Part shown: positions 2,158 through 23,077 of the stretch, in pieces
Position numbering within the stretch: the first letter of the stretch is position 1
Layout of the letters: each line of letters starts with the position of its first letter
Assembly: GCA_038890745.1 (NCBI GenBank)
Contig: JAWAFD010000003.1
Location: 12,442-76,441, forward strand
DNA: 64,000 nt
Direction: 5' to 3'
DNA from: Candidatus Anstonellales archaeon
GTDB lineage: Archaea > Micrarchaeota > Micrarchaeia > Anstonellales > J096
Notes under the pieces: generated by a model
Databases searched by the model: none
The model's input: the letters and a program-made list of their open reading frames with translations, nothing else
What the model was told of the DNA's origin: nothing
Position numbers and translations under genes: made by a program

Positions 2158-2200
<43 letters not shown>

Positions 2201-2709: not shown

Positions 2710-2748
2710 ACGCTGTTTGTTCAGGTTTTTCGGAGAGGACAAACAGCG
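2710..2748 (+). repeat. 38-nt palindromic hairpin insertion in 16S (copy 2), at the position equivalent to E. coli ~1092
   Basis: cgctgtttgttcaggtttttcggagaggacaaacagcg inserted in the GTTAAGTC loop before GGCAACGAGCG. Identical to copy 1 except for 1 nt. Confidence 0.7.
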
Positions 2749-2868
2749 GTCGAAAGTCCGGCAACGAGCGAGACCCATGCCCTTAGTTGCTAACTCTATC
2801 TCCGGATAGGGTGCACTCTAAGGGGACTGCCCGCGTTAAGTGGGAGGAAGGAGTGGGCGACGGTAGAT

Positions 2869-3662: not shown

Positions 3663-3770
3663 GTCCGTATGGCCCGAATCCTCTGGGCTACACGCGGCAT
3701 ACAATGGGCGGCACAACGGGTTGCCACTCCGAAAGGAGGAGCTAATCCCTGAAAACCGTCCCTTAGTTCA

Positions 3771-3809
<39 letters not shown>

Positions 3810-3843
3810 CTAGTAATCGCGGGTCACTATCCCGCGGTGAATG

Positions 3844-3875
<32 letters not shown>

Positions 3876-4064
3876 GTCACCCAAGTGTGGTTTCGGTGAG
3901 GCCCTCCTTTTTGGGAGGCTCGAACCGGGGCTACGCGAGGGGGGCTAAGTCGTAACAAGGTATCCGTAGGGGAACCTGCGGATAGATCACCTCCAAAAAG
4001 GAAATGCAAGGGGCCCTTCTCTGAATAAACCTTGAAGCCTGCCAAAATTTCTTTTTTTATATTC

Positions 4065-5883: not shown

Positions 5884-7311
5884 CTATCCCTTAACAACAG
5901 CTATTGGCCTGAGTTTTGCAACAATATTACTTATCCCTGCCAGTTGTACGGCATTCACAACATCATCAATATCCTTATACGCATCCGGTGCTTCTTCTGC
6001 AGCAACGCTCAATGTTGCTGGCTTAACTATTATTCCTCTCTCCCCAAGCTCCCTTACTATCTGCTCCCCTCTGTGCCTTCTTATTGCCTCGTGCCTGCTC
6101 ATCACCCTTCCTGCTCCATGGCATGTTGAACCAAAGCATACTTTCAGTCCTTTTGGGTTTCCAACAAGAACATAGCTTGCGGTTCCCATGCTCCCAGGAA
6201 TGATTACTGGCTGCCCAATACCCATATACTTTTTTGGCAGTTCTTTTCTTCCTGCTGGGAACGCTCTCGTTGCCCCTTTTCTATGCACGACCAGATTCAT
6301 CTTTTTTCCATCAACTTCGTGCTCCTCGAATTTTGCGATGTTGTGCGCAACATCATACACCAATTTCATGCTATCCATTACATTCGAACCATAAACCTTT
6401 CCAAAACTCTCCCTCACCCAGTGCATAATCATCTGTCTGTTTGTGAATGCAAAATTCACAGCACATTTCATAGCCTTTATGTAATCCTCCCCTTCCCTGC
6501 TCTTTACTGGTGCATACGCAAGCTCTGGGTCTGCCAATCTGATGTTGTTTTTTCTTGCCCATCCCATCACAACATTTATGTAATCGCTCGCAACCTGATG
6601 CCCAAAACCCCTAGAACCAGTATGGATCATTACAACGATCTGCCCTTCGTATAAACCAAACGCTTTTGCAACCTCTGGAAGATGGATCTTTTCAACATAC
6701 TGAATTTCTAAGAAATGGTTTCCTGCACCCAATGTTCCAAGCTGCGGCTTCCCCCTCTTTATTGCAACCTTACTAATTTTGGATGGGTCTGCTCCCTCCA
6801 TCCTTCCATACTCCTCTATACTTTCTCTATCCTCTTCCCATCCATAATTGTTTTCAATCGCCCATTCTACCCCCCTTGTCAAAACCTCTCTTAACTCTTC
6901 TTCGCTAAGCCTTACCTTCCCCTCGCTTCCTACTCCGCTGGGAACATTCGTAAAAAGTGCCTGAACAATCTCCTTTATTTTTGGTTTCACATCCTTTTGT
7001 TCCATGTTTGTTAGAAGCAATCTTACACCGCAGTTAATATCATACCCTACCCCTCCTGGAGAAACTATTCCATCCTCTGCTGGGAACGCAGCCACGCCAC
7101 CTATTGGAAACCCATACCCTTCATGCCCATCCGGCATGAGTAAGGCATGCTTCACTATTCCGGGCAATCCTGCTACATTCTTTAATTGCCATATCGTCCT
7201 ATCCTTTTTCATCTGCTCCAGCATTTTTTCTGTTGCAAAGATTATCCCTGGGACCCTCATCCCCTCTTCTTTAAACTCCCATGTAGCCTTTCCAATCTCC
7301 TTAAATTCCAT
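5884..7311 (-). CDS. rtcB: RNA-splicing (tRNA) ligase RtcB
   Basis: 475 aa. RtcB hallmarks: GYDINCGVRLL, NHFLEIQ, HTGSRGFGHQVA, CHGAGR. Confidence 0.9.
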   Translation of the reverse strand: MEFKEIGKATWEFKEEGMRVPGIIFATEKMLEQMKKDRTIWQLKNVAGLPGIVKHALLMPDGHEGYGFPIGGVAAFPAEDGIVSPGGVGYDINCGVRLLLTNMEQKDVKPKIKEIVQALFTNVPSGVGSEGKVRLSEEELREVLTRGVEWAIENNYGWEEDRESIEEYGRMEGADPSKISKVAIKRGKPQLGTLGAGNHFLEIQYVEKIHLPEVAKAFGLYEGQIVVMIHTGSRGFGHQVASDYINVVMGWARKNNIRLADPELAYAPVKSREGEDYIKAMKCAVNFAFTNRQMIMHWVRESFGKVYGSNVMDSMKLVYDVAHNIAKFEEHEVDGKKMNLVVHRKGATRAFPAGRKELPKKYMGIGQPVIIPGSMGTASYVLVGNPKGLKVCFGSTCHGAGRVMSRHEAIRRHRGEQIVRELGERGIIVKPATLSVAAEEAPDAYKDIDDVVNAVQLAGISNIVAKLRPIAVVKG

Positions 7312-7322
7312 ACTCTCCCTCC

Positions 7323-8114
7323 TTAAAATTGTATAAAGTCTTTGCTCGCTGAGAGCAGAAGAACAGCAAACATGAGGAAGAAGATTCCTGAGGTTAGGCA
7401 GTTTGCTGTTTTTAAAGCTGAGAATATGTTTTCCATTTCTGTACCCATGTTCTGAATGCTCGCTTCCATATCCTCCAAATCCTTCTTAACTTTGTTGAAA
7501 TTCTGCTGAACGCTTTTCATATCGCTCACAGCTTTGTCCAAGCTTGATTTTGTGGTTTGGAGTTCGTTCGCAGCACTCATGATCTCATCCGCGCTTTTCT
7601 CTAGCCCTTCCCCTTCCTTTTTGAATGAGATCACCCCTCCAAAATCAAGCATTTTTATTTTGCTTCCAAAACTTTTTATCTCCTCTCCAGAGTTTTTTAT
7701 TCCTTCGCTTGTTTGGTCTATGCTCGAGCTAAAGCTTGCGCTTCCATTCTCAATATTCGCAATCGCGCTGTTCATCTTTTCCAGCCCGCTTTTCAGGTCA
7801 CTCACGCTAGTCTTTACAGTTTCAATCCTGCTCATCGCCATAGTTTTTCCTTGGTCTATCGCTCCATCTACAATGAAATACAAAGCTATTGAGGCCAAAA
7901 GCCCAAACACCGCAAAGGATAGAAGGACTATGTTTATTGTAAGCTTCACCACCGGAGCCCCTTTTTCATCCTCTTTCCTCTCGATTTTTTCTACCTTTTC
8001 CTGCTCTTTTTTCGGCTCCTCTTTCCTTTCCGCTTTTTTCTCTAACCTCACGCCCGCTTTTTTCTCGAATATGTCGCTTGCTATTATGTGCTCCTCTTCC
8101 CTATGCTCACCCAT
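7323..8114 (-). CDS. Hypothetical membrane protein with Lys/Glu-rich N-terminus, two TM segments and a central coiled-coil/Ser-rich region
   Basis: 263 aa. TM helices (LTINIVLLSFAVFGLLASIALYFIV and GIFFLMFAVLLLSA). No catalytic motifs. Confidence 0.4.
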   Translation of the reverse strand: MGEHREEEHIIASDIFEKKAGVRLEKKAERKEEPKKEQEKVEKIERKEDEKGAPVVKLTINIVLLSFAVFGLLASIALYFIVDGAIDQGKTMAMSRIETVKTSVSDLKSGLEKMNSAIANIENGSASFSSSIDQTSEGIKNSGEEIKSFGSKIKMLDFGGVISFKKEGEGLEKSADEIMSAANELQTTKSSLDKAVSDMKSVQQNFNKVKKDLEDMEASIQNMGTEMENIFSALKTANCLTSGIFFLMFAVLLLSASKDFIQF

Positions 8115-8159
8115 AAACTGTGTATTGAGAAAAAAGGTTTAAATAGGTTCCCTGGCTGC

Positions 8160-9632
8160 CTATATGATTACTCTTACCCATCTATATGGGGTTTTTTCTA
8201 TATCCTCTTTGCTTTTTTCTCCAAACTTCTCAAATCTTTTTAAAAGTTGAAAAACTAAAACCTCATCAAAAGGTTTTAGACGAATTTCGCTTCTATTTAC
8301 TTCTACCTTTTTTCCGATTATTTCAGATATATGCTGAGCTGTTGCTTCGTGACCAATCACTGAAATAAATTTATTTTTCGCTAAAATATTTATTGCTTCT
8401 TCATCGCTTATCACTTTGAAGTATGCATTCCCGCTGGGATATTTGTTTATATCGAACATATTCAATGAAAAAGAAGATGCTAGATAAATGTTTTTTTCAC
8501 GCTGTTTATTTTTTATTAGCTCTGCTATTCTTCTACATTCTTCCTCACATTTCTTTATATATTTTTCGATCTTTTTGGGACTTATGTTTTGCGAGTTTTG
8601 GGTTTTCCTCCCTGTTCCGGCATGCGCTAAGTAATTTCTCCAATTTTGTATATTCCCAAATATTCCCCTCTCCTTTGTTTCAAGTTTTCCTAATAACTTA
8701 GTAACCATCTCTCTATCATCTTTTTTGTTTCCGTCCATTCCTAATTCTTTACATATTTTCGTTATGTACGCTTCTTCTAGGAATATAACTGCATCACGCA
8801 GATGCTTACGTTTATTATGATATTCCGAAGTGAGCAACATCGCTTCTTCGTTGCTTTTTGCCTCCCCTTCCTTTTCCATAAATGGCTTAAATTCTTTTTT
8901 TAGTTTTTTGATTAACGCTGAGACTATATATTTTTGAATACCATCTAATCCTTCTAGGCTTTCATCTAATTCACCGATAGTTCCAGTTTCATAAATATTT
9001 TTCAAAAACTCACGTATCTCATTTATTTTCCCCATAAATTTTGTATTGCTCTTTCTAAATAGTTCTTTTGCATCCTTGCTTATCTCTTCTATTTTTTGAG
9101 GGTCCAGCGTATTTACAGCCTCTTCCATATCCGCTACAATCTTGAATATTAAAGAGTATTTTTCTAAATTGATAAGTTTACCTTTTTTTGTTTTTTCGTT
9201 AAAGAACTGATAAAAATATTCTATACTGGCTTCCTTCTCTTTTTCAATTATTTGCAATGCAAGTAGTACCAATGTTGTAGTATACTTAAATCCCGTAGTG
9301 GTATCAAAATGTATGGTGGATCTCTCTTCTTCTTTTATTTCCTTGCTAAGATTTACAAGAACATTTTGAAAAAATGCGTTCTGGTCTTCTATATTTTGTA
9401 TTTTTATTTTTTTTATTTTTGAACTATCAATTCTTCCCTTTAAATTTTCTAATTCATTTTCAGCTTCTTCTGTTGGGATTATTGCAATTATTTTATCATA
9501 GCTAAACTCGTTCTTTAGTATTTCTAATGGTATCATTATATTTCTGTATTTTTTTCCCATGTATTCGACTTCTTCTGCTTCTTTATAGTTTTTTCCAACA
9601 TTCATTACATACATTCTCATACAAACCACCAT
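8160..9632 (-). CDS. csx1: Csx1/Csm6-family CARF-HEPN ribonuclease with C-terminal DUF1874 (Crn2/AcrIII-1-like ring nuclease) fusion
   Basis: 490 aa, last gene of the type III operon. HEPN R-x4-H motif WRNYLAHAGTG at ~aa 330. N-terminal alpha/beta CARF-like region. C-terminal ~120 aa (NIYLASSFSLNMF...SVIGHEATAQHI...NRSEIRLK) resembles DUF1874 cA4 ring nucleases as I recall them. Confidence 0.55.
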   Translation of the reverse strand: MVVCMRMYVMNVGKNYKEAEEVEYMGKKYRNIMIPLEILKNEFSYDKIIAIIPTEEAENELENLKGRIDSSKIKKIKIQNIEDQNAFFQNVLVNLSKEIKEEERSTIHFDTTTGFKYTTTLVLLALQIIEKEKEASIEYFYQFFNEKTKKGKLINLEKYSLIFKIVADMEEAVNTLDPQKIEEISKDAKELFRKSNTKFMGKINEIREFLKNIYETGTIGELDESLEGLDGIQKYIVSALIKKLKKEFKPFMEKEGEAKSNEEAMLLTSEYHNKRKHLRDAVIFLEEAYITKICKELGMDGNKKDDREMVTKLLGKLETKERGIFGNIQNWRNYLAHAGTGRKTQNSQNISPKKIEKYIKKCEEECRRIAELIKNKQREKNIYLASSFSLNMFDINKYPSGNAYFKVISDEEAINILAKNKFISVIGHEATAQHISEIIGKKVEVNRSEIRLKPFDEVLVFQLLKRFEKFGEKSKEDIEKTPYRWVRVII

Positions 9633-9633
9633 T

Positions 9634-10518
9634 TCAATATGATGTTATATTTACCCTTCCCATCCCAGCAGTTGTTAGCTTACCTATCCCTCTGTAATTA
9701 GAATATCCTGCCAACAACCCTAATAATTTTTTTGTTTCTTTGGGTAGCGAAGTTATAGAATAAGTTATACTCCCCATTATCCCACTTATTCTCTCTTTTT
9801 TATTTCTTTTTTCTGACCATCGATCAATGGATGTATATTTTTTTATTTTGTTTACGCAAATAGCAGCTTTTTCCAATTTTTTCTTAAAATCTACAAAGTT
9901 TATTTCTGGTTTATATGAATAGTAAAAGAAAGAAGTATTGTGAAAAGAACGTGCCATGGTCATTCCTATACTTTGAAGGGATGGCTCTGTGACCATTGAG
10001 TTCTCGAACCTTAATAGTGTGGGGGTTAAAAAATTAAAACGAATTCTTTCTTTTAATTGAATGCTTCTTACGAATTCTTCTTTAATATTGACTATTTTTG
10101 CACCTACAGACCCATAACCTTTTTTTCTACCTTTTCCTATACTATTTACTTTTTCAATAGCTTTTTTTAGGTGATTTAAAAAATTATTTCCTTTGCCGAA
10201 TAACATAATTTTGAAATTTATCTCTTCATCAACAAAATATGTTTTCTTAGGTTCTAATGGAGGACTAATGGAGTAGGGTTTAGGTATCTGCATTCTATGT
10301 AATGGTTTTTTTACATCCCTTTGCTCTAGTTCGAATAAATATCCATAAGCACATCCTTCAATTCTATTACAACTTTTGCAGTTTTTATTTTTTCCCATAA
10401 GACAAGAATTTTCTCTCAACTTTTGGCCTATTGCACCTCTTATACTGAATCCTTTAAACTCATTTAGATGTACTGGGGTTTTTGGAATAAATTTGGCTTC
10501 TATTACAGTTATCTTCAT
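9634..10518 (-). CDS. cas6: Cas6 crRNA endoribonuclease (probable), with a zinc-finger-like Cys cluster
   Basis: 294 aa. C-terminal glycine-rich loop GIGKLTTAGMG (GxGxxxxxGxG) ~12 aa from the C-terminus. CxxC..CxxxC cluster CKSCNRIEGC. Position between csm5 and csx1. Confidence 0.5.
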   Translation of the reverse strand: MKITVIEAKFIPKTPVHLNEFKGFSIRGAIGQKLRENSCLMGKNKNCKSCNRIEGCAYGYLFELEQRDVKKPLHRMQIPKPYSISPPLEPKKTYFVDEEINFKIMLFGKGNNFLNHLKKAIEKVNSIGKGRKKGYGSVGAKIVNIKEEFVRSIQLKERIRFNFLTPTLLRFENSMVTEPSLQSIGMTMARSFHNTSFFYYSYKPEINFVDFKKKLEKAAICVNKIKKYTSIDRWSEKRNKKERISGIMGSITYSITSLPKETKKLLGLLAGYSNYRGIGKLTTAGMGRVNITSY

Positions 10519-11405
10519 TTTGGTTCAACCCTTACCCACCCAAATGGATAATAAATTTCATTTATTTTTGTAATTTTTATTGTTGTTGAGTTTTCAGAAA
10601 ATTTTCCTTTACCAATTCTTATTAGAATATTATTTTTGTTTTCCTGTTCTATTTTTTTGTAGAATTCCTCTAGTCCATTTAAAGCTTTAATTGTTTCACT
10701 ACGCAGATCTATGATTTTGTTTTTAAAATTCCTTATCCAGTTTAATTCCCCTTTAATCAAATTGCTATTAATATCTTTAATTTTTTCTAATATTTTTTCG
10801 TTTTCTAAATATCGGACCTCTTTCTCATGATAAAATTCGTTTTTTATTATCTCTGCATTAATTTTCTTTCCTGGAGGGATTACCTCAATATAATTATATT
10901 TGATTAGCCTGTTTATTTTTTTCATGCTTAAACTATATATTCTGGATATAGTTAGACTGTCTTTTTCGAGCATTACATCTCTAAATATTATGTATGACAA
11001 GGTAGGTTTATTGCTGACTTTGTCTATGTGATGTACTGAGCCTGGGCCAGTGTAGGACACGAAAGTGCCCTTTATAGATGATCCTGGAATATAAGGTTTG
11101 CCATCTATATTTATAAATTCATTTATTACAATATCATCTTTGTTAGCTATGTCTTCAACTATTTTTATCCCACCACTACTTAAAGCATATTTTTCACTAA
11201 TTTCTCTTAATTTTTTTATTTTTTCTTTGTGATCCTTTTTCTCTTTAAATTCTTTTATTATTTTTTTTAGGTCATCTATTGTATAGCGATTTAGATCTAC
11301 GTCAACTAAATAACCATTTTTTATTACGCAATCAAAAGGGTAATGTTTTTCACTACCATTACCAATATGAATTGGAGACAATGTGTAGAACAAATATTCT
11401 TTCAT
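10515..11405 (-). CDS. csm5: Csm5 (Cas7-family RAMP, type III-A)
   Basis: 296 aa. RAMP G-rich segment YIPGSSIKGTF. Gene order after csm4. 4-nt overlaps with neighbours. Confidence 0.65.
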   Translation of the reverse strand: MKEYLFYTLSPIHIGNGSEKHYPFDCVIKNGYLVDVDLNRYTIDDLKKIIKEFKEKKDHKEKIKKLREISEKYALSSGGIKIVEDIANKDDIVINEFINIDGKPYIPGSSIKGTFVSYTGPGSVHHIDKVSNKPTLSYIIFRDVMLEKDSLTISRIYSLSMKKINRLIKYNYIEVIPPGKKINAEIIKNEFYHEKEVRYLENEKILEKIKDINSNLIKGELNWIRNFKNKIIDLRSETIKALNGLEEFYKKIEQENKNNILIRIGKGKFSENSTTIKITKINEIYYPFGWVRVEPK

Positions 11406-12319
11406 GATCTCACCTCTGGATCTATTTTAAATAAACTATCAAGATCGGCTTTAAGGTATAGTTTTATTGTTCTTCCGTTGAAAATCTTTTCTTCACTATC
11501 TAACTTTATTATTTTGCCATTTGATGGTATATCACTAAAAATTCCGCCCGAAGGGTAGTATAAGAATGAGATACCGGATCTTATTTTTTGATCGCCTTTT
11601 TCTGACAAGAAACTATTATATTTCTCTATACGAGAAAATATGAATTCACTGTTTTCCTCCGGGATGTAATCCGAAAGGTTTATGAAAAATTTTTCTTTTT
11701 TGGTGAGATATTCTTTATTGAATTCAGATAATATGTTCGACGGGTCTTTAAATACTAATCTGCTTGCTCCAACTGATTTATCAGCCCCCATTCCATAAGA
11801 TGACATTTTTAATAGAGCGTTCTCTATTATCTCTTTGTTTTTTTCTTCTACGGAGATTAAAAGAAAGGCATTTTTGACTATTGTTATATCATAATAAAAC
11901 ATATTCCTTTCCCTTATATAATTCCCTATTCTTCTTATCTTTTTTTGTTCTTCCTTTTTTTTGTTTGTGCGTTCTGTTAAACTATTCATTATCCTGTCTT
12001 TGATGAGGTCATCTGTTACCTCTTTGTCTGTGTCTTTTATCAGAACCTCTGTTTCTTTAAGCTCCTTTCTTAGTTTCTTTCTTATTTCTTTGTTTTGTAT
12101 GAATCCCACTGCGTTTTGTAATCTTACACAGAATCCAAATTCAACATTTTTCATAATTCTACTAACTGCAAATTCTTTATCTTCTAAAAGTTTTTTTCCA
12201 TCTTCCCCGAAAAAATCTATAGCAGTTTTCAGTATGGCTCCTGAAATTTGCATGCTTGTTAATAATCCTGACGAAGTGTTGTATCTTATTTCATCAAATT
12301 CTGCTTTATATATTGTCAA
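11402..12319 (-). CDS. csm4: Csm4 (Cas5-family RAMP, type III-A)
   Basis: 305 aa. Position between csm3 and csm5. G-rich SFLYYPSGGIFSD. Size typical of Csm4. Confidence 0.55.
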   Translation of the reverse strand: MTIYKAEFDEIRYNTSSGLLTSMQISGAILKTAIDFFGEDGKKLLEDKEFAVSRIMKNVEFGFCVRLQNAVGFIQNKEIRKKLRKELKETEVLIKDTDKEVTDDLIKDRIMNSLTERTNKKKEEQKKIRRIGNYIRERNMFYYDITIVKNAFLLISVEEKNKEIIENALLKMSSYGMGADKSVGASRLVFKDPSNILSEFNKEYLTKKEKFFINLSDYIPEENSEFIFSRIEKYNSFLSEKGDQKIRSGISFLYYPSGGIFSDIPSNGKIIKLDSEEKIFNGRTIKLYLKADLDSLFKIDPEVRS

Positions 12320-12330
12320 ATGCCCCCCTC

Positions 12331-12954
12331 CTATATTTTATTTAACTCATCAAGGTTGTTTATTTCCAATTTAACTTTTCCGTACCCTCTTGTTCCGCTT
12401 CCGCCCAAATAATTGCTATTGAGAAGCTCTACCATTTTTTCTATTTTATTTTTTAATTCACTTGGAGGTATAATGTATTTTCCATCATTTTTTTCTAGTA
12501 TAACTACCATCTCGAAATCAAATTTTGTTCCGGGTTTTACTCTTTCAGAGCTTCTTAGGTCTTTTGCTTTTCCTGTATTCCGGTCTATTCTGTTTTCTAT
12601 CTTTACTTCTATGAAATCATTTGGATCTCGATTTTTCTGTTCACGACTTACAAAGGAATCTCTAAATATTAAAATTCCTTGTTTCTCAGGACTTCCAAAA
12701 AGTAATTCAATCTCATCCTTTTCTTTACCCTCTGTAATAATTTTACCTTTTTCATTATATTTTATGCCAATTAATTTTTCGTATAAGCATCTAATTTTTC
12801 CCTTTAGAGAGCTTCCCGGTATATATGGATATCCTTCTGGATCTTTTATTACAGGGTTATCTATTCCTGCGATCTCATACGTCCCTTCGCCTCCTATGTG
12901 CAATCCACTCAATACTGTTATTTCTCCTTTCAAAACCTTCGTTTCAAATCCCAT
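12331..12954 (-). CDS. csm3: Csm3 (Cas7 backbone subunit, type III-A)
   Basis: 207 aa. VLSGLHIGGEG and YIPGSSLKGKIR G-rich loop typical of Csm3. Confidence 0.75.
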   Translation of the reverse strand: MGFETKVLKGEITVLSGLHIGGEGTYEIAGIDNPVIKDPEGYPYIPGSSLKGKIRCLYEKLIGIKYNEKGKIITEGKEKDEIELLFGSPEKQGILIFRDSFVSREQKNRDPNDFIEVKIENRIDRNTGKAKDLRSSERVKPGTKFDFEMVVILEKNDGKYIIPPSELKNKIEKMVELLNSNYLGGSGTRGYGKVKLEINNLDELNKI

Positions 12955-12965
12955 ATTCTCACCTC

Positions 12966-13388
12966 TTACTTTCCTTTTATGTTAGCAAGCATTAGTGTTG
13001 ATGCATACTCAAGCGGGAGTATATAATTCTCCTCTATTGATTCTTCTTTGCCTAATTTTTCACCTATTGATTCAAATATATCTGCATAAAATTCTGCAAT
13101 AACTTTTACTTTTTTATCAGTATTTTTTTTGGATGCTATGTATCTAAATTTTGCTGCTGTTAGCAGTAAGTCCTTCTCAGCCATTTTTCTTTTTATTCCA
13201 CTTATTGACTTAAATAGCTCTATAGTTTTACTTCTAGGAATTTCGTATAATTGTGCTTTTATTTTTTCGATCGCGTTTTTTATTTTGTACATTTTATCCT
13301 TAGCGTTGTCGCTGCTCAGTATAGTATCCTTTATACTTCTCAAATCCAGAGGTTTCTCCTCATCTTTACGTCCATTCATTTCAATCAC
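12966..13388 (-). CDS. csm2: Csm2 small subunit (Cas11, type III-A)
   Basis: 140 aa, helical, immediately downstream of cas10 with an 8-nt overlap. Size and position canonical. Confidence 0.6.
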   Translation of the reverse strand: MIEMNGRKDEEKPLDLRSIKDTILSSDNAKDKMYKIKNAIEKIKAQLYEIPRSKTIELFKSISGIKRKMAEKDLLLTAAKFRYIASKKNTDKKVKVIAEFYADIFESIGEKLGKEESIEENYILPLEYASTLMLANIKGK

Positions 13389-15738
13389 CTCTTTTTAGAT
13401 CATAAAAATCATTTCCTTCCCCTAATTTAAATTTTGAAAATAATAATGCGGTGGAAAGACTCTGTAAAAAGGTCTCTTTCTCTATAGTTTCCTTTATACT
13501 GTTATAATCTTCGGCATCCTTTTGACTTATTGATTTTTTGTGTCTTTCTATTATGTAATCCATTTTTGCTTTTGAAAATAGTTTTTTTATTTGTCTATCT
13601 ATTTCTTTATACTTTTTGCTAATGGATATTCCTGGATCCAAATATACACTCATTAGATTATACAAGAGGCTTCTAGAGATATTTTTGTTCTCCTTCATTA
13701 TATCTATAACCTTAAACAAATCTTCGTATTCATCATTTCCAATAACATTCCTATCACCAGGTACGAAAGAAATGTAGGTTGCATTTTTTGTCCTACTGTT
13801 GTTTTTCTTATATCTTTTTGCTTCTTTAAGTCCTATCTCTCCAATTTCACTTAGTTCTCTTACTGGGAATCTGTGATGCTCTACTATTATACTTGCAGAA
13901 TATGTTATTCCATATTTATCATCTTCTGAATGGAAAATTTTGTAGAAATTTTCCTTAAAATTTTTCATAAAGACTAGTGCGTAATCATATCTTGTTATAA
14001 GGGTTATATCATCGCCTCCCGCATATAAGAGATAAAACTTTTTATTATTTTTTTCTTTTTCATGTTTTTTTTCGCCTATTGTTTCATTTATTCCAGAATT
14101 TAAGCATTCTATCATTGATTTTTCCATTAAAGTTATAAATTCAAGTGTAAGAGAAAAATCTTTGCAACATTTTTCTACTTTGTCTCCAAGCCCATCTATA
14201 TCAATTTTAATGAAAGCTAGATATGGCGTATTCTTCTTTCTTTCTTCAACTTCTATGATCTCATCTATTTTGTCATTTATCCATAATGGTATCAAATGAT
14301 AATCGACCCCAAGATTATTTTTTATGTAATCTATAATATTAAACTGTTCTGAAACTTTACCTACTTTTAAAAATAGGTCGACAAATCCATTATTTATCTT
14401 TAGATTTTTGATTTTATCTATATCCATAACGAATATCTTAAATCTTCCAAATTCGAATACTGGTTCTTCATCGATAATATTTCTTGTTTTTTCGGTATAT
14501 AGTATTCCGGATATCATACGCTCGTAACTACATTTTGTTCCTAATTTTTCCATGCTTTTGCATGCTTCACAACAATCTTTATTACCCGTATAAATCTCAC
14601 CGCACCTATCACATTTTTTTCCATTTTTTATTGTTTGATCATCTATTTTATATGTATAACTGTTAAATCCTGCCTTTTCGAAAATTATTGTGTTGTAGTT
14701 TTTTGGTTCGATATCCTTCTTTTGATCTTTTAGGTTTATCGTTAATTTTACTATCCCAAAAGATGCTGAAAGCGGGAAATACCCCAATTCTATTAATTTT
14801 TTGTTAAACTGTTCCAATTGATTTTTTATTTTTTTTGATGGGTCTTCATCAGACAAAAAGGCAAACTTTCCAGAAGAGAGAAACAATAATGCAGCAATGT
14901 TTAATTCAAGTTCTTTTAATATCTCTAACGATAGTAATCTAGTTATAGCGTATATAAATATTGATCTGCCCCTCATTATTTTTGATGATACTTCCCCTCT
15001 ATAGTCTTTTTTTAAGAATTTTGTTATAAACCGTTGGATGCCATTAAGTTTTACAAGACAATAATATATTTCTGTTTTTTCGTCCCCTATTTTTATATTT
15101 TTTTTCTTAAGTATGTAAGCTAGTGATGATGATGCTTTTGAATGAGAATAAATTGAGTAGACCGGACATTCATGCTGTTTGTAAGATGGTACTGCATAAG
15201 TGTAGTCTCGGAGTATAGTGCTTATGTTTTGGTATTGATATTCAAAATTTTCCTTGTTTATGTTTTTTAATGCTTCTACTAATTCCATTTCAAATTTTTT
15301 ACTTTGTGAGCTTTCATGTGCTATTTCGATTTTTTCATGTTCCCTTACACTATATGGTGCTATTTCATCTAGTGTAAATTTTGTACATAATCTATCGCAT
15401 TCAAGCGTATCCACAAAGTAAGCAGGCAGTAAAGTTTTTCCTTCTTCATCATCTTCTTCTTTTTCTGGTCTCATGCTTGCTGAGATCTGGTCTCCTAATT
15501 TTACATACATTATTTGTTCCTCATCGATTTCATTGTGATGTTTTTCTACTAGGCAGGCTACAGAAGAAAGTTCCGGTGCATTTTTTTCTATGAATTCTGC
15601 ACCAATTTCTGCATGCTTTCTTCTACCTTCTATATTTTTCAATATTGTTTTATATCTCTTTTGAAAAGATTTTCCTAAATCGTGAAGAAGTGCAGCAAGA
15701 ATAATTTCTTGTTCTGAATTTATACTACTTTTCATCAT
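13381..15738 (-). CDS. cas10: Cas10/Csm1 with N-terminal HD nuclease domain, treble-clef zinc finger and GGDD cyclase (Palm) motif
   Basis: 785 aa. HD motif LLHDLGK...KHH. CDRCGEIY...CCEACKS zinc finger. YLLYAGGDDITLI (GGDD) cOA-synthase motif intact. Confidence 0.85.
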   Translation of the reverse strand: MMKSSINSEQEIILAALLHDLGKSFQKRYKTILKNIEGRRKHAEIGAEFIEKNAPELSSVACLVEKHHNEIDEEQIMYVKLGDQISASMRPEKEEDDEEGKTLLPAYFVDTLECDRLCTKFTLDEIAPYSVREHEKIEIAHESSQSKKFEMELVEALKNINKENFEYQYQNISTILRDYTYAVPSYKQHECPVYSIYSHSKASSSLAYILKKKNIKIGDEKTEIYYCLVKLNGIQRFITKFLKKDYRGEVSSKIMRGRSIFIYAITRLLSLEILKELELNIAALLFLSSGKFAFLSDEDPSKKIKNQLEQFNKKLIELGYFPLSASFGIVKLTINLKDQKKDIEPKNYNTIIFEKAGFNSYTYKIDDQTIKNGKKCDRCGEIYTGNKDCCEACKSMEKLGTKCSYERMISGILYTEKTRNIIDEEPVFEFGRFKIFVMDIDKIKNLKINNGFVDLFLKVGKVSEQFNIIDYIKNNLGVDYHLIPLWINDKIDEIIEVEERKKNTPYLAFIKIDIDGLGDKVEKCCKDFSLTLEFITLMEKSMIECLNSGINETIGEKKHEKEKNNKKFYLLYAGGDDITLITRYDYALVFMKNFKENFYKIFHSEDDKYGITYSASIIVEHHRFPVRELSEIGEIGLKEAKRYKKNNSRTKNATYISFVPGDRNVIGNDEYEDLFKVIDIMKENKNISRSLLYNLMSVYLDPGISISKKYKEIDRQIKKLFSKAKMDYIIERHKKSISQKDAEDYNSIKETIEKETFLQSLSTALLFSKFKLGEGNDFYDLKRGD

Positions 15739-15795
15739 TACCCCATGTTGAAATTGACTACAATAAGTTTTTAAATTTTTTTTCTGATGATTCTA

Positions 15796-16494
15796 CTAAC
15801 TTCTTTTTGTTTTTTCTTCTACCAATTTAAGCAACTTTTTTTGGTATTCGTCCATGAAATAAAAAACCTCTTTACCTTTTTTGATACTGTTTATCCACCC
15901 TTGATTGATCATTTTCTTTGTTGCTATGAATATAGTTTGTTTTTTTCTACCCATTCTTTTTGTTAATTCTGAAAGTGAAATGGGTTCTCTACTATTCGCT
16001 ATTTCATTTAAGATATTCGTGTAAGTGATGGTTTTTCTTTTATGTTTGGTTTGACTGAGGAAAAAGAAATATGCTGAAATTGGAAGTATTTGTGTTTGTT
16101 TTTTATATGGTGTATGTTTGATTAATATTTTTTTATTTTCAACTATGTGGCGTTTCTCGAACACATTTTGCGAAACTGATAGTATAAGTGCAAAGAATAT
16201 CTCTTTCGATGCCCCCGTCATATCCACGATAATTTCGTCTGCTGTTTCCGTTAACAATTTATCAAATTTATACTTCATATTTAAAAAATCATAGAAGTCT
16301 GCTTCTTCTTCTGATGTTTCTGTGATTTTGAGTAGGTTTATGTATTCTTTTTTTATTTTTTCCCACACGCTCTTAGAGTCTAATGAGTAATATATACTTA
16401 TAGTATCTGGTTTTATATATTTCATAATATAATTCATAGACTCTTTTATCGCTTCTTCGTTTTTTCCTACAAAAATAATAGCTTTTTTTCGCAT
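15796..16494 (-). CDS. csa3: Csa3-like CARF + winged-HTH transcriptional regulator
   Basis: 232 aa. N-terminal Rossmann-like CARF with VDMTGASKE (D-x-T-G-x-x-K) ligand-pocket motif. C-terminal wHTH (ISLSELTKRMGRKKQTIFIATKKMINQGWI). Confidence 0.6.
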   Translation of the reverse strand: MRKKAIIFVGKNEEAIKESMNYIMKYIKPDTISIYYSLDSKSVWEKIKKEYINLLKITETSEEEADFYDFLNMKYKFDKLLTETADEIIVDMTGASKEIFFALILSVSQNVFEKRHIVENKKILIKHTPYKKQTQILPISAYFFFLSQTKHKRKTITYTNILNEIANSREPISLSELTKRMGRKKQTIFIATKKMINQGWINSIKKGKEVFYFMDEYQKKLLKLVEEKTKRS

Positions 16495-16592
16495 GCTTTA
16501 TTTTATTTTTGGAAATATTTTTAAATGTTTCGTTTAATCATCAGACAAAAAATTTAAAAATAACCTATTTTTAATTATAATCAGGTGAAAAA
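16495..16592. promoter_or_regulatory. Divergent promoter region between csa3-like and the cas4-like/cas1/cas2 operon; contains the aaaaatttaaaaataac motif shared with the CRISPR leader
   Basis: AT-rich 98-nt intergenic region. The 17-nt BRE/TATA-like motif at 16548-16564 is identical to 18315-18331 in the CRISPR leader. Confidence 0.45.
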
Positions 16593-17102
16593 ATGAATGT
16601 AAAATGTAGTGAGATAAGATTGTTTGTAATAAATAGGAAGGCCTGGTTTCTGAGCCTTCTTGGAATGGGTAAGAAGTATCTTCCCATGGGAAGAGCAAAG
16701 CACGAGGCAATATTCTCGGATACAGCAGAAGATAACCACAAAGTAGTGTTTGATACAAAAGATAGATTCGAAGTAGAGATGGTTAAGAAGCTTATCTTTT
16801 CATTCGGAAAACCTAAACAAGCAGAGAAAAAAATTAACCCAGTTTATAAACTGATAGGAAAAGCAGATGGTTTCATAAATGGCTTGCCTTTTGAAGTCAA
16901 ATTCTGCGAAAAAGAAAACCAAGGGGATTTTTTGCAAGCTGCTTCTTATGCACTCCTTTACAGTACCAGCAAGTCATATCTTTTCTATCCTTCTAGGTAT
17001 TTTGTAGTAGATCCTAATGAATATATCGACAGGATAGCAGATGTTGTAGACAAGATACTAGCAGTGAAGGAGGCGCTTTTCTATGATACTTATATGCGAT
17101 GA
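16593..17102 (+). CDS. cas4: Cas4-like RecB-fold nuclease lacking the Fe-S cysteine cluster
   Basis: 169 aa, directly upstream of cas1. Motifs GKADG (motif II Asp), FEVKF (E-x-K), QAASY (QxxxY). Only one Cys in the C-terminal part, so no 4-Cys cluster. Confidence 0.45.
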   Translation: MNVKCSEIRLFVINRKAWFLSLLGMGKKYLPMGRAKHEAIFSDTAEDNHKVVFDTKDRFEVEMVKKLIFSFGKPKQAEKKINPVYKLIGKADGFINGLPFEVKFCEKENQGDFLQAASYALLYSTSKSYLFYPSRYFVVDPNEYIDRIADVVDKILAVKEALFYDTYMR

Positions 17103-17970
17103 GTTCGGGACATGGATAGGCAAAAAGGGTGAAAGAATCATACTCAAAAAGGGAGGTGATGTCATAAAAGAGGTATCTATGAGAAAAATCGAGGGGATTA
17201 TGGTGGGGAAAGGTGTTTCATTATCTTCTGATTTCTTAGTTATGCTTTCTAAAAACAACATCCCCGTCTTCTTCTCATCTGACCTTTCCTCACCATTTAT
17301 TTTTTCTTCTTCTTCCCTTTCCTTGTCAAATCTTCGTTATGCTCAATCTCATATTTCCGATGATAAGAAAAAGACATTCGTAAAAAACATACTGTTCTCT
17401 AAAATTTTTAATCAATACTCATTGGCTCTTCATCTGTTTGGTGAAGAATTATCTTATGATGATTTTTATCCTTCTGTAGAGTATGAGAGTAATTTTGCTA
17501 AGAGATATTGGTCTTGTGTTAGGAAACATATCCCAATGTTTGTATCCAGGGATAGAAAAAGTGAAGATAACGTAAACCTTTCGCTTAATTATGGCTATGG
17601 TATTCTTCGTATCAGTATTTTAAAATCTGTCCTTGCTTCAGGATTGGACCCTTATTTTGGCATGATCCATCACTTAAAGGACTATTCTACTTCATTTGTC
17701 TTTGATGTAATGGAACCGTTTAGACCTATTGTGGACTATGCAGTTTTTCTATGCAAAGATGATTTAGATAAAGACTTTAACTCAGAATTGAAATATATTA
17801 TTGCTAAAAAAGTTTTATCAGTTTTTAAATCTAACTTTTTTTATAAAACTAAGAGAACTTCTCTTGATAGAATATTCCTTCTTTTTTGTTATGAGATTGG
17901 ACATTTTTTTAGAGATGAAGAAAAAAATGATTTTGCAACATTCCGGGTATTCAGATGGCCAAGATTATAG
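17083..17970 (+). CDS. cas1: Cas1 integrase
   Basis: 295 aa. Typical Cas1 N-terminus (MILICDEFGTWIGKKGERIILKKGG...) and size. Followed by cas2 with overlap. Confidence 0.85.
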   Translation: MILICDEFGTWIGKKGERIILKKGGDVIKEVSMRKIEGIMVGKGVSLSSDFLVMLSKNNIPVFFSSDLSSPFIFSSSSLSLSNLRYAQSHISDDKKKTFVKNILFSKIFNQYSLALHLFGEELSYDDFYPSVEYESNFAKRYWSCVRKHIPMFVSRDRKSEDNVNLSLNYGYGILRISILKSVLASGLDPYFGMIHHLKDYSTSFVFDVMEPFRPIVDYAVFLCKDDLDKDFNSELKYIIAKKVLSVFKSNFFYKTKRTSLDRIFLLFCYEIGHFFRDEEKNDFATFRVFRWPRL

Positions 17971-18230
17971 TTTTCTATGACATCAAGGATGATAGAAGAA
18001 GGTATGGCTTTGCTGATTTTTTGAAAAACATAGGTTTAGAGAGGATTCAGTTCAGTGGTTTTATGGGAGAGATAAGAGAGAAGGATTTTAATGAACTTAT
18101 TTCTGGTATTCCTAAAAAAATAAATGACGCAGAAGATACTGTTCATCTTGTTCTGCTTTCTTCTTTTTCAGAGGTAAAGTGTTTTGGAAGAGGGTGGATC
18201 CCTTCAGATCCGGACATTCTTATTTTTTGA
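17955..18230 (+). CDS. cas2: Cas2
   Basis: 91 aa. MAKIIVFYDIKDDRRRYGFADFLKNIG... typical Cas2. Adjacent to leader and array. Confidence 0.85.
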   Translation: MAKIIVFYDIKDDRRRYGFADFLKNIGLERIQFSGFMGEIREKDFNELISGIPKKINDAEDTVHLVLLSSFSEVKCFGRGWIPSDPDILIF

Positions 18231-18443
18231 TTTTTAAATTTTTCCATAAAATTGACAGGATATATAGTTTTATTTTGAGATATTATATGTAGATATTTAA
18301 TGGCCCATTAGCCGAAAAATTTAAAAATAACTTATTAGTTAAACTGAGCATATAGAGGCGCAAATAAATACGCGTATTAAAGCGTGCCGCCTTATTTTCT
18401 GTTTTTGCCTGTGTATTATACAAGTTTTTGTTATAGTTTATGT
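18231..18443 (+). promoter_or_regulatory. CRISPR leader with promoter (TATA-like tttaaaaata at ~18320)
   Basis: 213-nt AT-rich segment between the cas2 stop and the first repeat. Carries the same 17-nt motif as the cas4-like promoter. The degenerate terminal repeat lies at the opposite end of the array. Confidence 0.6.
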
Positions 18444-21400
18444 ATTGAACATGTTTACTCTATGTAAAGAGGACTGAGACTTTCAATTTTTTAACATCTA
18501 CGTAATACGCTGAGACCTCTTGATTGAACATGTTTACTCTATGTAAAGAGGACTGAGACCGATTCACGACTCTGGATGAAAACTTAGAGTGCGGTATTGA
18601 ACATGTTTACTCTATGTAAAGAGGACTGAGACCCTTTCTTTTTTATTACTGCCAGATGAAACAGCCTGTGATTGAACATGTTTACTCTATGTAAAGAGGA
18701 CTGAGACCACCCTGAGACCCAGCAACTATCCACGCCTCACCCGTATTGAACATGTTTACTCTATGTAAAGAGGACTGAGACCGACCAGAAGAAGGAGATT
18801 GGAACCCCCCGCAACCTGTGCATTGAACATGTTTACTCTATGTAAAGAGGACTGAGACGAATAAAAGAAGAGCTCGCTGCCGCAAAGAGATGCCTAATCC
18901 ATTGAACATGTTTACTCTATGTAAAGAGGACTGAGACAGTCCTTTTGTGTAGGCTTCCTTTGCTGCTGTGACTGATTGAACATGTTTACTCTATGTAAAG
19001 AGGACTGAGACATTCCTCATTTTGTTTTTTGAGTTCTTCGTTTTGTTTTTATTGAACATGTTTACTCTATGTAAAGAGGACTGAGACTTTTCATCAGGTT
19101 TATAGTCAGGCTTGATGTCGGGTTTATTGAACATGTTTACTCTATGTAAAGAGGACTGAGACGTCGAGAAATTTTATAATGTGGGGTACTGCCCTTGCAT
19201 ATTGAACATGTTTACTCTATGTAAAGAGGACTGAGACGTCGAGAAATTTTATAATGTGGGGTACTGCCCTTGCATATTGAACATGTTTACTCTATGTAAA
19301 GAGGACTGAGACTTCTCCCAATCGCAACAGCAGCCCGAAATCGTACTTTTATTGAACATGTTTACTCTATGTAAAGAGGACTGAGACTGCTGGTGCTCCA
19401 TACTGCAATATATTTTCAGTGGGGGCATAAATTGAACATGTTTACTCTATGTAAAGAGGACTGAGACTTGAAGAATAGCAATTAAGGTATTCTGTTTCTA
19501 TCACTATTGAACATGTTTACTCTATGTAAAGAGGACTGAGACTTTAGTGGATTAGCGGAAGTGAGGGGGGAGGGGTATAATGATTGAACATGTTTACTCT
19601 ATGTAAAGAGGACTGAGACTATTTTTTCTATTTTTTCTTCATTCATTCTTACCACCTCGATTGAACATGTTTACTCTATGTAAAGAGGACTGAGACTTTT
19701 CGCAATTCCGCTATCTCTAAGTCTCCAACTAAATCTATTGAACATGTTTACTCTATGTAAAGAGGACTGAGACGGGGTCCCTCGTTGACAACTCCCCCAC
19801 ATCCATTTTACCACCTATTGAACATGTTTACTCTATGTAAAGAGGACTGAGACTTATTTCCAAAAACTTCATATACTCTTCCATCATGTTCAAAAGATTG
19901 AACATGTTTACTCTATGTAAAGAGGACTGAGACAGGGCTCAAACAACATTATACTACCTACAAAAATTGCAAGAAATTGAACATGTTTACTCTATGTAAA
20001 GAGGACTGAGACAAGCCTCTATAAGACTAGGGACAGCCGCAGAACAATCCCCATTGAACATGTTTACTCTATGTAAAGAGGACTGAGACTGGAACATAAA
20101 AATTAACCTAAGGAAAGTTATAACTTCTGCGATTGAACATGTTTACTCTATGTAAAGAGGACTGAGACTGAAAACTTCATCGCACTCTGAACAACCACAC
20201 CCGCAAATTGAACATGTTTACTCTATGTAAAGAGGACTGAGACTTATTCAAGATAATAAGTCCTACACAAACTAACAATAACGATTGAACATGTTTACTC
20301 TATGTAAAGAGGACTGAGACCTTCAAAAAATACAACAGAAAACAGGGTGAATTTAAAATATTGAACATGTTTACTCTATGTAAAGAGGACTGAGACCACA
20401 TCTTAACTAACTCCTGCGGGCATACTTCTATCATTGAACATGTTTACTCTATGTAAAGAGGACTGAGACCTTCTTTTTTTCTTTTTCTCATAAAATTTTA
20501 TTTTGTTTTATTGAACATGTTTACTCTATGTAAAGAGGACTGAGACGAACTTATATTGTGGAAACACTTTTGATAGAATTTTTACATTGAACATGTTTAC
20601 TCTATGTAAAGAGGACTGAGACATGCAAAAAAACAGTTTGTTATTTCTACAAAAAAATCTATTGAACATGTTTACTCTATGTAAAGAGGACTGAGACACT
20701 ACCCACGACTCACCAGTGTTTGAGAGGCCACCCCCATTGAACATGTTTACTCTATGTAAAGAGGACTGAGACTATTTTTTCTATTTTTTCTTCATTCATT
20801 CTTACCACCTCGATTGAACATGTTTACTCTATGTAAAGAGGACTGAGACTTGTTTTCTCCAGGGGAAACCTCTTCAGAGGTTTCCCCGTGAATTGAACAT
20901 GTTTACTCTATGTAAAGAGGACTGAGACCGGATGTATATCGGAGATAGGGGTTCCCCCTTCGAACCCGATTGAACATGTTTACTCTATGTAAAGAGGACT
21001 GAGACTTTTCATTTTTTCACCTCTTTTATTTTTTTCCTCTATTATTGAACATGTTTACTCTATGTAAAGAGGACTGAGACTACACCTCTATAGTGAAGTC
21101 CTCTCTGTGGTGGAAGAGGATTGAACATGTTTACTCTATGTAAAGAGGACTGAGACCTATTGTTTTATTTCCACTTATCACTGCTACTGTCTTCTCCATT
21201 GAACATGTTTACTCTATGTAAAGAGGACTGAGACAAATCCAAATATTTTATATTAATGCACACCTTTTCCTGTGGATTGAACATGTTTACTCTATGTAAA
21301 GAGGACTGAGACCCATAGGAAGGAGGGCGTGGCATCCGCAAGCGAGTTCTCCATTGAACATGTTTACTCTATGTAAAGAGGACTGAGACATTTTTTGTTT

Positions 21401-23077
21401 CGTTATGTTTTTTTATGTTATCGCCTCATTGAACATGTTTACTCTATGTAAAGAGGACTGAGACACCCGTAAATTCATCAAAACATAGCACCTTAACAAT
21501 GTAATTGAACATGTTTACTCTATGTAAAGAGGACTGAGACATTATAGTAAAAACCTTCGCTTCCAAACAACCCTTTCCATTGAACATGTTTACTCTATGT
21601 AAAGAGGACTGAGACTAGCGACCTACCCGTGAAGCCAGCATAATCTTTCCAAATATTGAACATGTTTACTCTATGTAAAGAGGACTGAGACAATAATAAA
21701 CAGTTGTGTGTGTTGCATGCAAATAATCAATTGAACATGTTTACTCTATGTAAAGAGGACTGAGACTATACTCTACTGTGCGGGCGCGGTATTTTTTTGT
21801 TTTGATTGAACATGTTTACTCTATGTAAAGAGGACTGAGACTTTACTCAACAAACCTTTTTCTATTGCGAGATGATTATATCATTGAACATGTTTACTCT
21901 ATGTAAAGAGGACTGAGACTGTTCAATTTGCGTAAGGGTCTTCTGCGTTTCCTGTGATGTTAAAAATTGAACATGTTTACTCTATGTAAAGAGGACTGAG
22001 ACGCCTTTACCACTTTTTTCACCTCCGAGAATTAAGTTTATTGAACATGTTTACTCTATGTAAAGAGGACTGAGACGCTATGAATTCAAACGTATACGGA
22101 ACATATTTATCTCAATTGAACATGTTTACTCTATGTAAAGAGGACTGAGACCAATTATATTAAGCACTTTGCGGATAAAAGAATTAGAAATTGAACATGT
22201 TTACTCTATGTAAAGAGGACTGAGACATGTACTATCCCTCGATGGCGGGGAATAACCCAACTAATCATTGAACATGTTTACTCTATGTAAAGAGGACTGA
22301 GACTCATCTAATCACCTTGCTATTTATCTTAAACCAAACATTATTGAACATGTTTACTCTATGTAAAGAGGACTGAGACTCCCCGCAAAAAACCAGTCAA
22401 CGAGGGACTTCGGGGGGTCCCTATTGAACATGTTTACTCTATGTAAAGAGGACTGAGACTATGTTTATATAGGGTTTTTTGTCGAATGTTATTTTCACTT
22501 ATTGAACATGTTTACTCTATGTAAAGAGGACTGAGACAACCATAATTCTATGTCCAACTCCATTTTATCAGCCTCCTTATTGAACATGTTTACTCTATGT
22601 AAAGAGGACTGAGACGAGGTATTTTTTCTCTATATTGTAAGGGTATGACTGCTAAACCAAGATTGAACATGTTTACTCTATGTAAAGAGGACTGAGACTT
22701 TACCCTTGCTACTCCCTGGCTTGGAAATTCCATTGAATTGAACATGTTTACTCTATGTAAAGAGGACTGAGACTCCCAGCAAAAAACCAATCAACGAGGG
22801 CCTTCGGGGGATCCATTGAACATGTTTACTCTATGTAAAGAGGACTGAGACTTGAGGATATATTTCAGAACAAAAGAGCTAAAAGAAATTGGATTGAACA
22901 TGTTTACTCTATGTAAAGAGGACTGAGACTGTAAGTTTATGTTGTTTTGTGTAGAAGTTTTCACACATTGAACATGTTTACTCTATGTAAAGAGGACTGA
23001 GACGCCTTTTTCTGCACATAGGAAAGCGCCTTTGGTTCCAATTGAACATGTTTACTCTATGTAAAGAGGACTGCTAC
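18444..23077 (+). CRISPR. CRISPR array, ~63 copies of 37-nt repeat ATTGAACATGTTTACTCTATGTAAAGAGGACTGAGAC, spacers 35-43 nt
   Basis: Perfectly conserved direct repeat at ~73-80 nt period. Last repeat is degenerate (..GGACTGCTAC at 23041-23077). Leader and cas1-cas2 lie at the 18.4-kb end. Confidence 0.97.

Follow-up and report, generated by a model that had tools for sequence, protein, structure and literature searches.

Three spacers of a type III-A CRISPR array in a Candidatus Anstonellales archaeon cover one hairpin-bearing sequence in two versions

Introduction

When several spacers of one CRISPR array resemble each other, the question arises whether they were taken from one place in one invader and, if so, what brought the adaptation machinery back to that place. 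This question is raised by an array of 61 repeats in contig JAWAFD010000003.1 (assembly GCA_038890745.1, positions 12,442 to 76,441 of the forward strand; this stretch of 64,000 nt is called the window, and all positions below refer to it unless another contig is named). The window comes from a Candidatus Anstonellales archaeon, a lineage of Micrarchaeia in the DPANN group. A previous inspection of the letters, here called the sequence-only reading, had noticed that spacers 52 and 18 overlap, that their join contains a hairpin, and that spacer 57 is a variant of spacer 52, and it took the three spacers for repeated acquisition from a mobile element in the course of an arms race. It left out that the host is archaeal, that a Cas4 is encoded beside the array, and that the reverse complement of the joined sequence looks like a gene start.

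Results and discussion

Spacers 52, 18, and 57 derive from one hairpin-bearing sequence

The 3' end of spacer 52 and the 5' end of spacer 18 overlapped by exactly 9 nt (GGGGTCCCT), and their join gave a 77-mer, in agreement with the overlap of about 9-11 nt and the target of about 77 nt that had been described. The three spacers lie where they had been placed (Table 1), except that spacer 52 ends at 22422 and not at 22423. The 77-mer contains the perfect 13-bp stem that had been claimed (GTCAACGAGGGAC / GTCCCTCGTTGAC, positions 17-29 and 38-50 of the 77-mer); the loop, however, measured 8 nt (TTCGGGGG) instead of 7 nt. Seven of the stem bases come solely from spacer 18, and they perfectly complement bases that are present only in spacer 52. 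Spacer 57, for which 4-5 mismatches had been estimated, matched spacer 52 at 37 of 41 positions, with exactly four differences (at 5, 17, 28, and 38) and without indels. Both spacers start with the same base, and spacer 57 is 2 nt shorter at its 3' end.

The sequence-only reading had allowed for an overlap that is merely coincidental. A 9-nt end-to-start overlap alone is indeed not rare among such low-complexity spacers, and it occurred in 26/300 and 120/2000 shuffles. However, an overlap of at least 9 nt together with a junction-spanning perfect stem of at least 10 bp occurred in 0/2000 shuffles, compared with a stem of 13 bp in the real pair. Because no shuffle combined overlap and stem, the common origin of spacers 52 and 18 cannot be put down to chance. 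The similarity level of spacers 52 and 57 was likewise found in 0/2000 shuffles. As far as the sequences can tell, one hairpin-bearing sequence is confirmed as the source of all three spacers, and chance is not an explanation; the sequence was sampled in two versions, named A1 (spacer 52) and A2 (spacer 57). The earlier claim that the array holds part of an unknown invader sequence was also supported.

The 3' arm supplied by spacer 18 is complementary to the spacer 52 version at 13/13 positions and to the spacer 57 version at 11/13 positions, suggesting that spacer 18 was derived from a spacer 52-like version. Going by the positions in the array, where spacer 57 is the fourth from the trailer, spacer 57 was captured before spacer 52, and spacer 52 before spacer 18. 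Since 60 repeats (2220 nt) and the exact spacer duplicates are unchanged, yet spacers 52 and 57 differ by 10% and in length, these two spacers are, as read from the array, independent acquisitions and not products of mutation within the array.

The crRNAs are probably antisense to invader mRNAs

Type III interference requires CRISPR RNAs (crRNAs) that are antisense to the target mRNA. In this array, the leader adjoins cas2 and the degenerate repeat lies at the opposite end, and the 3' end of the repeat (ACTGAGAC) resembles the usual AUUGAAAC-type 8-nt crRNA tag. The spacers were pooled into a set of 67 unique sequences, 58 from the window, 8 from a sibling metagenome-assembled genome (MAG), and 1 from a third sample. 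As written, 44 of the 67 were pyrimidine-rich and 18 were purine-rich (p=0.0013); the sense strands of the host have a mean purine content of 60%. A Shine-Dalgarno (SD) motif with an ATG was present in 9/67 spacer reverse complements and in 1/67 written strands (p=0.02), and three spacers end exactly in CACCT. Because the leader side, the degenerate repeat, the repeat 3' end, the base composition, and the strand bias of SD and ATG agree, the crRNAs are probably read from the + strand and would be antisense to invader mRNAs. The strand check that had been called for earlier accordingly came out in one direction, as both array-wide biases appear to fit antisense, type III-style targeting.

The rate of 9/67 was also higher than the host sense-strand rate of 5.5% (p=0.011), and by this proxy only, gene starts appear to be over-represented among the spacer targets. 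For spacer 18, the flank of the target can be read from spacer 52 (GACTTCGG). It matched the repeat tag at 0/8 positions, and therefore no self-type tag pairing is expected for this spacer.

The 77-mer as the start of an invader gene

The reverse complement of spacer 18 begins with AGGTGGTAAAATG, that is, with an SD motif and an ATG. The reverse complement of the entire 77-mer reads AGGTGG-TAAA-ATG GAT GTG GGG GAG TTG TCA ACG AGG GAC CCC CCG AAG TCC CTC GTT GAC TGG TTT TTT GCG GGG. In its frame 2, the SD motif and the properly spaced ATG are followed by 22 open codons, and the 13-bp inverted repeat lies +16 to +49 nt after the putative ATG. The differences between A1 and A2 read in this frame as D>D, S>A, D>D, and A>A, so that three of the four are synonymous. 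The same changes disrupt pairs 28:39 and 29:38 at the top of the stem, and no compensatory change restores them. Because the changes are mostly synonymous and the broken pairs are uncompensated, a coding rather than a structural constraint is suggested. On balance, the 77-mer probably represents the 5' end of a protein-coding gene of the invader, which would be targeted antisense.

Some observations weigh against a gene start. Three of four differences in one codon phase are expected by chance about one third of the time, frame 3 of the + strand is equally open and shows the same synonymous pattern, and the hairpin on the reverse complement is followed by TGGTTTTTT, which is terminator-like rather than coding. 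With the codon-phase evidence weakened in this way by a second fitting frame, the target may be non-coding, with SD and ATG incidental. It would then be either a terminator-like hairpin with a U-tract on the complementary strand or a UUCG-type hairpin RNA in the spacer sense. On the reverse complement, the 13-bp stem is followed by UGGUUUUUU (-30 kcal/mol); read as an intrinsic terminator, this would be the stem, a 3-nt gap (UGG), and then U6. The spacer-sense strand folds into a 15-bp stem that includes two G-U pairs (z=-3.47), and CTTCGG is kept in both A1 and A2. However, the strand that would be the target RNA reaches a z of just -1.69, the changes in A2 disrupt the stem without compensation, and the open frame, set up by its properly spaced SD and ATG, runs through the terminator-like element. 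The host, moreover, is archaeal, and archaeal termination relies on oligo-T, not on hairpins. As the array-wide excess of antisense gene starts also makes a gene start the simpler reading, we regard a non-coding target as unlikely.

A second hairpin locus and the possibility of a dispersed element

Spacer 32 has a second hairpin-bearing target. Its hairpin is shared at 20/23 positions with spacer m5 of the sibling MAG (L001 11709-11747), a similarity found in 0/300 shuffles, and all three differences are located in the apical 6 nt, i.e., in the loop. Exact duplicates aside, spacers 52/57/18 and spacers 32/m5 represent the only multiply-sampled loci, and both have perfect stems (13 and 11 bp). 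Outside the array, the host sequence (59 kb) contained no perfect stem of at least 11 bp; if the host rate is set to its 95% upper bound, only 0.13 such loci are expected in 2.65 kb of spacers (P<=0.008). This coincidence of repeated sampling with hairpins is one of n=2 loci in a natural, selected array. A further spacer of the sibling MAG, m2, is possibly a diverged form of the gene start in spacers 16 and 31; its similarity was marginal (14/300 shuffles), and it was not counted as a third shared locus.

If the hairpin is a dispersed multi-copy element of the invader, of a terminator-like, repetitive extragenic palindrome-like, miniature inverted-repeat transposable element-like, or origin-type kind, the spacers would come from different copies and the repeated hits would reflect copy number. 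At the second locus a dispersed element is favoured, because the flanks in the two strains are unrelated: the upstream similarity of spacers 32 and m5 ends abruptly at TCCA before the stem, while the hairpin itself is conserved except at its apex. The two hairpin loci also resemble each other in a CCA immediately 5' of the stem and in a loop that starts with TTCG or TTCA, and 6/9 nt of the overlap between spacers 52 and 18 belong to the stem and would recur in every copy of the palindrome. However, spacers 52 and 57 share not only their start point but also 16 nt of upstream flank with one difference, and spacer 18 is tied specifically to the spacer 52 version by three loop bases in addition to its fully matching arm. 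The stem sequences of the two hairpin families, furthermore, are not similar. For the three spacers of the 77-mer, we consider that different copies of a dispersed element are an improbable source, on a par with the non-coding target. Of the two allelic versions of a mobile element that the sequence-only reading had proposed, the two versions hold; alleles and paralogous copies of a repeated element are not separable from these data.

A proposed account of the repeated uptake

We propose that Cas4-Cas1-Cas2 took spacers 57, 52, and 18, in this order, from one stretch of about 77 bp in a virus or plasmid that would infect this archaeon. Spacer 57 would represent one version of the sequence, and spacers 52 and 18 a second version with differences at 4/41 positions. 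The array would be transcribed from the cas2-proximal leader, and Cas6 would cut the repeats and leave an 8-nt ACUGAGAC tag on crRNAs that are antisense to the invader mRNA. With these crRNAs as guides, the Csm complex (Cas10, Csm3-5) should cleave the invader transcript and activate the Csx1 fusion nuclease by signalling. That the stretch was sampled repeatedly would then reflect a local acquisition hotspot at DNA that is start-codon-proximal, hairpin-forming, and transcribed. From the known function of Cas4, a cut anchored at a protospacer adjacent motif (PAM) may set the leader-proximal (5') end of the spacer. Such a cut fits because spacers 52 and 57 share the 5' end and vary at the 3' end, and because spacers 16 and 31 have identical boundaries.

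Taken as a whole, from uptake by Cas4-Cas1-Cas2 through the gene start and the antisense crRNAs to the hotspot, this account has in our judgement slightly better than an even chance of being right. In addition to the unrelated flanks at the second locus, it is opposed by the folding of the spacers in general. In foldability, the spacer pool did not exceed host 40-mers or shuffled versions of itself (mean minimum free energy z -0.12; Mann-Whitney p=0.90), and a global hairpin preference of the pool was rejected. A bolder version would hold that the array of a DPANN archaeon records an acquisition bias linked to structure and to transcription start, that a Cas4 module fixes the 5' end, and that the hairpins mark a key cis-element of the invader, such as an origin of replication or transfer or a leader with a regulatory role. 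This version is tentative, and we think it somewhat unlikely.

The differences between the two versions do not require target escape

An arms race, as favoured by the sequence-only reading, would mean that point mutations let the invader evade spacer 57 and that the host then re-immunised itself with spacers 52 and 18, taken from the escape variant. The array order, with A2 (spacer 57) followed by A1 (spacer 52) and the A1-type spacer 18, is compatible with such a course. So is an ongoing acquisition, which is indicated because the leader-proximal spacers of the sibling strain are entirely different. However, type III recognition would probably survive four differences that are scattered over 41 nt and mostly of a synonymous type, and nothing in the data points to a loss of immunity. 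Type III complexes are mismatch-tolerant and should still recognise both versions; therefore, re-acquisition was not needed for immunity. The shared 5' boundary of spacers 52 and 57 and the exact re-acquisition in spacers 16 and 31 point to a deterministic choice of site, not to selection. The type III system that had been invoked is present in the form of a Csm operon, but target escape is not needed to explain differences that are so few and show no sign of it. Escape-driven re-immunisation is less likely than a hotspot, and the repeated sampling is accounted for no less well by a hotspot or by an element in several copies; we rate the arms race as quite improbable.

Search for the target

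A contiguous match to the 77-mer, which the sequence-only reading had suggested looking for in the rest of the genome, the metagenome, and viral databases, was not obtained from the window, metagenomes, or viral and plasmid collections. In the 59 kb of own genome in the window, no target was found by blastn-short with all spacers and the 77-mer or by a search for the hairpin with up to 3 mismatches. In IMG/VR, no match was found for the allele-degenerate spacer 52 pattern, for the codon-degenerate halves from spacers 52 and 18, for the spacer 32 hairpin, or for 22-mers of three other spacers. A stem-only pattern with variable loop gave three matches in IMG/VR, which were rejected because the palindromes (23-60% GC) were unrelated and their flanks showed no similarity. 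The allele-degenerate core had no match in JGI metagenomes and GTDB representative genomes, the 77-mer and the whole array had none in INPHARED phages and PLSDB plasmids, and both synonymous reading frames, searched as peptides, had none in a set of 5.8 billion proteins. Literature searches by accession found no mention. Neither the JGI nor the GTDB set contains the repeat, and since the host lineage is unsampled there, the negative search says little. It nevertheless tells against the proposed account, in which the contiguity of the target, its coding status, and the nature of the invader are putative.

As none of the 60 spacers matched a virus or plasmid in these searches, the target could lie in the chromosome of a partner host cell or in an element integrated into the archaeon's own genome. 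DPANN lifestyles involve intimate partners. However, neither the available 59 kb of the own genome nor the GTDB representative genomes contained a match, and the spacers resemble the own genome in GC content (39.2% compared with 39.6%) and in SD usage. A partner or self target is very improbable. As for spacers 57 and 52 being an in-array duplication that later diverged, with a coincidental overlap of spacers 52 and 18, exact duplicates do occur (spacers 10 and 11, and 16 and 31) and an overlap of 9 nt alone appeared in 6-9% of shuffles, but the unchanged repeats and duplicates beside a difference of 10% and 2 nt in length, and the 0/2000 shuffles with overlap and hairpin completion, effectively refute it.

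Comparison with known systems

Several spacers from one invader locus, a variant included, are an ordinary CRISPR phenomenon, seen here in a poorly sampled host. In natural archaeal arrays, for example those of Sulfolobus islandicus populations (PMC6452263), clustered, overlapping, and variant spacers against one virus are likewise found, with several spacers and mismatched versions for one invader region, older spacers nearer to the trailer, and strain-specific spacers at the leader end. Those arrays belong to a type I-A system with a known CCN PAM, whereas the present system is type III with Cas4, and its matches are not mapped to an invader.

In the type III-A system of Streptococcus thermophilus, uptake favours DNA that forms transient hairpins (sso, oriT, and attenuator or terminator hairpins) and DNA that follows start codons at a distance of about 10-50 bp (Zhang, Garrett, Graveley, Terns; NAR 2022; PMC8860593). 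Type III-A uptake just downstream of early phage promoters, dependent on transcription, has also been described (Noble-Molnar et al. 2026; PMC13575424). The present array is similar to the S. thermophilus hotspots (PMC8860593) in that the system is type III-A, long inverted repeats are present at the multiply-sampled loci, a putative start codon precedes the main locus by 16-49 nt, and gene starts are in excess array-wide. It differs in its archaeal DPANN host and in an adaptation module that includes Cas4. A difference that speaks against extending the S. thermophilus mechanism to this array is that spacers integrate there in either orientation with no Cas4 involved, while the array here is strongly strand-biased. 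Compared with the uptake experiment, moreover, we deal with a natural, selected array and two loci, without a general excess of foldable spacers.

As in the Cas4-dependent, PAM-anchored processing of type I systems and Pyrococcus furiosus (PMC5737086, PMC7293040), cas4 is located directly upstream of cas1-cas2, spacers 52 and 57 share their 5' end and differ at the 3' end, and spacers 16 and 31 have identical boundaries. Unlike in those systems, the Cas4 is very divergent, and the type III effector needs no PAM. As only a single protospacer flank is known (spacer 18: ...TTCGG), no PAM could be derived.

If the bolder version of the account is true, a bias so far shown only experimentally in bacterial type III-A systems would appear in a natural DPANN array. 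The array offers a hint, from a natural population, that the preference of type III-A adaptation for hairpins and gene starts may extend to archaea and to modules that contain Cas4. Prespacer processing that is deterministic, here in combination with a type III system, is suggested by the 5' ends in common and by the exact re-acquisitions. Current understanding would change only with the discovery of the invader and a demonstration of the bias at the uptake step. The 77-nt tag and about 2.6 kb of other spacer sequence can serve as bait for viruses or plasmids of Micrarchaeia, for which, as a DPANN group, hardly any mobile elements are known.

The CRISPR-cas locus and its copies in related assemblies

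As shown in Table 1, the array consists of direct repeats of constant length and of unique spacers that vary little in length, it has adjoining adaptation genes and an AT-rich leader, and its trailer repeat (23041-23077) is degenerate with 2 mismatches. The other 60 of the 61 repeats are 100% identical. The gap between the end of cas4-cas1-cas2 and the first repeat is 213 nt. Two pairs of exact spacer duplicates were found. Spacers 10 and 11 (19163-19200 and 19238-19275) are adjacent, probably owing to slippage or recombination. Spacers 16 and 31 are 15 units apart and their neighbours are not duplicated, which may mean re-acquisition with identical boundaries or recombination.

Table 1. Positions of the array, the spacers discussed, the cas genes, and other features of the window
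Feature	Positions	Strand	Remarks
CRISPR array	18444-23077	+	61 repeats ATTGAACATGTTTACTCTATGTAAAGAGGACTGAGAC (37 nt), 60 spacers of 36-46 nt
AT-rich leader	18231-18443	+	between cas2 stop and first repeat; identical in sibling contigs
Spacer 16	19620-19659	+	identical to spacer 31 (20773-20812); antisense SD and ATG, putative gene start
Spacer 18	19774-19816	+	43 nt: 3 loop bases, full 3' arm, 27 nt downstream
Spacer 32	20850-20891	+	second hairpin-bearing target; 11-bp perfect stem, TTCA loop
Spacer 52 (version A1)	22380-22422	+	43 nt: upstream flank, 5' arm, loop, first 6 nt of 3' arm
Spacer 57 (version A2)	22774-22814	+	41 nt; 4-mismatch variant of spacer 52
cas4, divergent	16593-17102	+	169 aa; PADLOC Cas4, E 4.6e-5, residues 3-157
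cas1	17083-17970	+	TIGR00287, 140 bits
cas2	17955-18230	+	identical protein at NCBI assigned to Candidatus Anstonellales archaeon
cas10/csm1	13381-15738	-	TIGR02578, 221 bits; HD at residue 19, GGDD at residue 574
Open reading frame (ORF) at csm2 position	12966-13388	-	140 aa; without family match
csm3	12331-12954	-	TIGR02582, 170 bits
csm4	11402-12319	-	RAMP subunit
csm5	10515-11405	-	RAMP subunit
cas6	9634-10518	-	
Csx1 (CARF-HEPN) fused to B116-like/Csx16-like C-terminal domain	8160-9632	-	Csx1/Csm6 CARF+HEPN model, E 7e-21
rtcB (RtcB RNA ligase)	5884-7311	-	
Archaeal 16S rRNA gene	1226-3995	+	2770 nt; model of 1478 positions
ORF inside 16S rRNA gene	2917-3657		246 aa; weak HTH_3 match
82-bp unit, two tandem copies	45450-45614		98% identical; intergenic
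Intron-bearing tRNA-Ile	45862-45953	-	
203-bp unit, tandem duplication	53644-54050		100% identical

Related arrays were sought through look-ups of Cas1, Cas2, and the trailer gene, which yielded one useful sibling array (8 spacers) and one collapsed assembly (1 spacer); at E<=1e-10, Cas2 gave one cluster only. The strain of the window is 100% identical to contigs of SRR27730023 and SRR27730025. The sibling MAG is about 95% identical across the cas region, and its array lies at L001 11362-12012. The assembly of the locus from the third sample (SRR27730032_1105, 1-1648; L009) has only 2 repeats and 1 unique spacer. Compared with the window, its cas2 and leader side is 99.7% identical and its trailer gene just 91.8%, as might result from a collapsed assembly or a recombinant strain.

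The Csm operon beside the array appears intact and of type III-A, since Cas10 with HD and GGDD motifs, Csm3, Csm4, Csm5, Cas6, and an ancillary effector with a CARF domain are all predicted from the genes. The putative Cas4 was detected by PADLOC alone, with no Pfam or NCBIfam match and no PDB relative by sequence; the motifs D..EVK (PD-(D/E)xK type) and QAASY (QxxxY) were read by eye. The Csx1 fusion, with its domain like B116 of Sulfolobus turreted icosahedral virus (STIV) or Csx16, may be a self-limiting fusion of a ribonuclease with a ring nuclease, and its length varies by strain (490, 486, and 482 aa). The RtcB gene lies two genes beyond the Csx1 fusion, past a 263-aa coiled-coil ORF. 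The GC content of the cas operon (~8000-18000) is 29-32%, lower than the 40-44% of the flanking genome, which suggests that the CRISPR-cas cassette was horizontally acquired.

Other features of the window

That the host is archaeal is also seen from the window itself, which carries a 16S rRNA gene of archaeal type and a tRNA gene with an intron. About 1.3 kb is inserted in the 16S rRNA gene relative to the model, and together with the ORF inside the gene this is probably an rRNA intron with an ORF. The 82-bp tandem unit, which adjoins the tRNA-Ile gene, is GC-rich with internal hairpins and has no match in Rfam. The tandem duplication of the 203-bp unit, real or an assembly artefact, covers the 3' ends of the convergent ORFs at 53000-53746 (+) and 53927-54661 (-).

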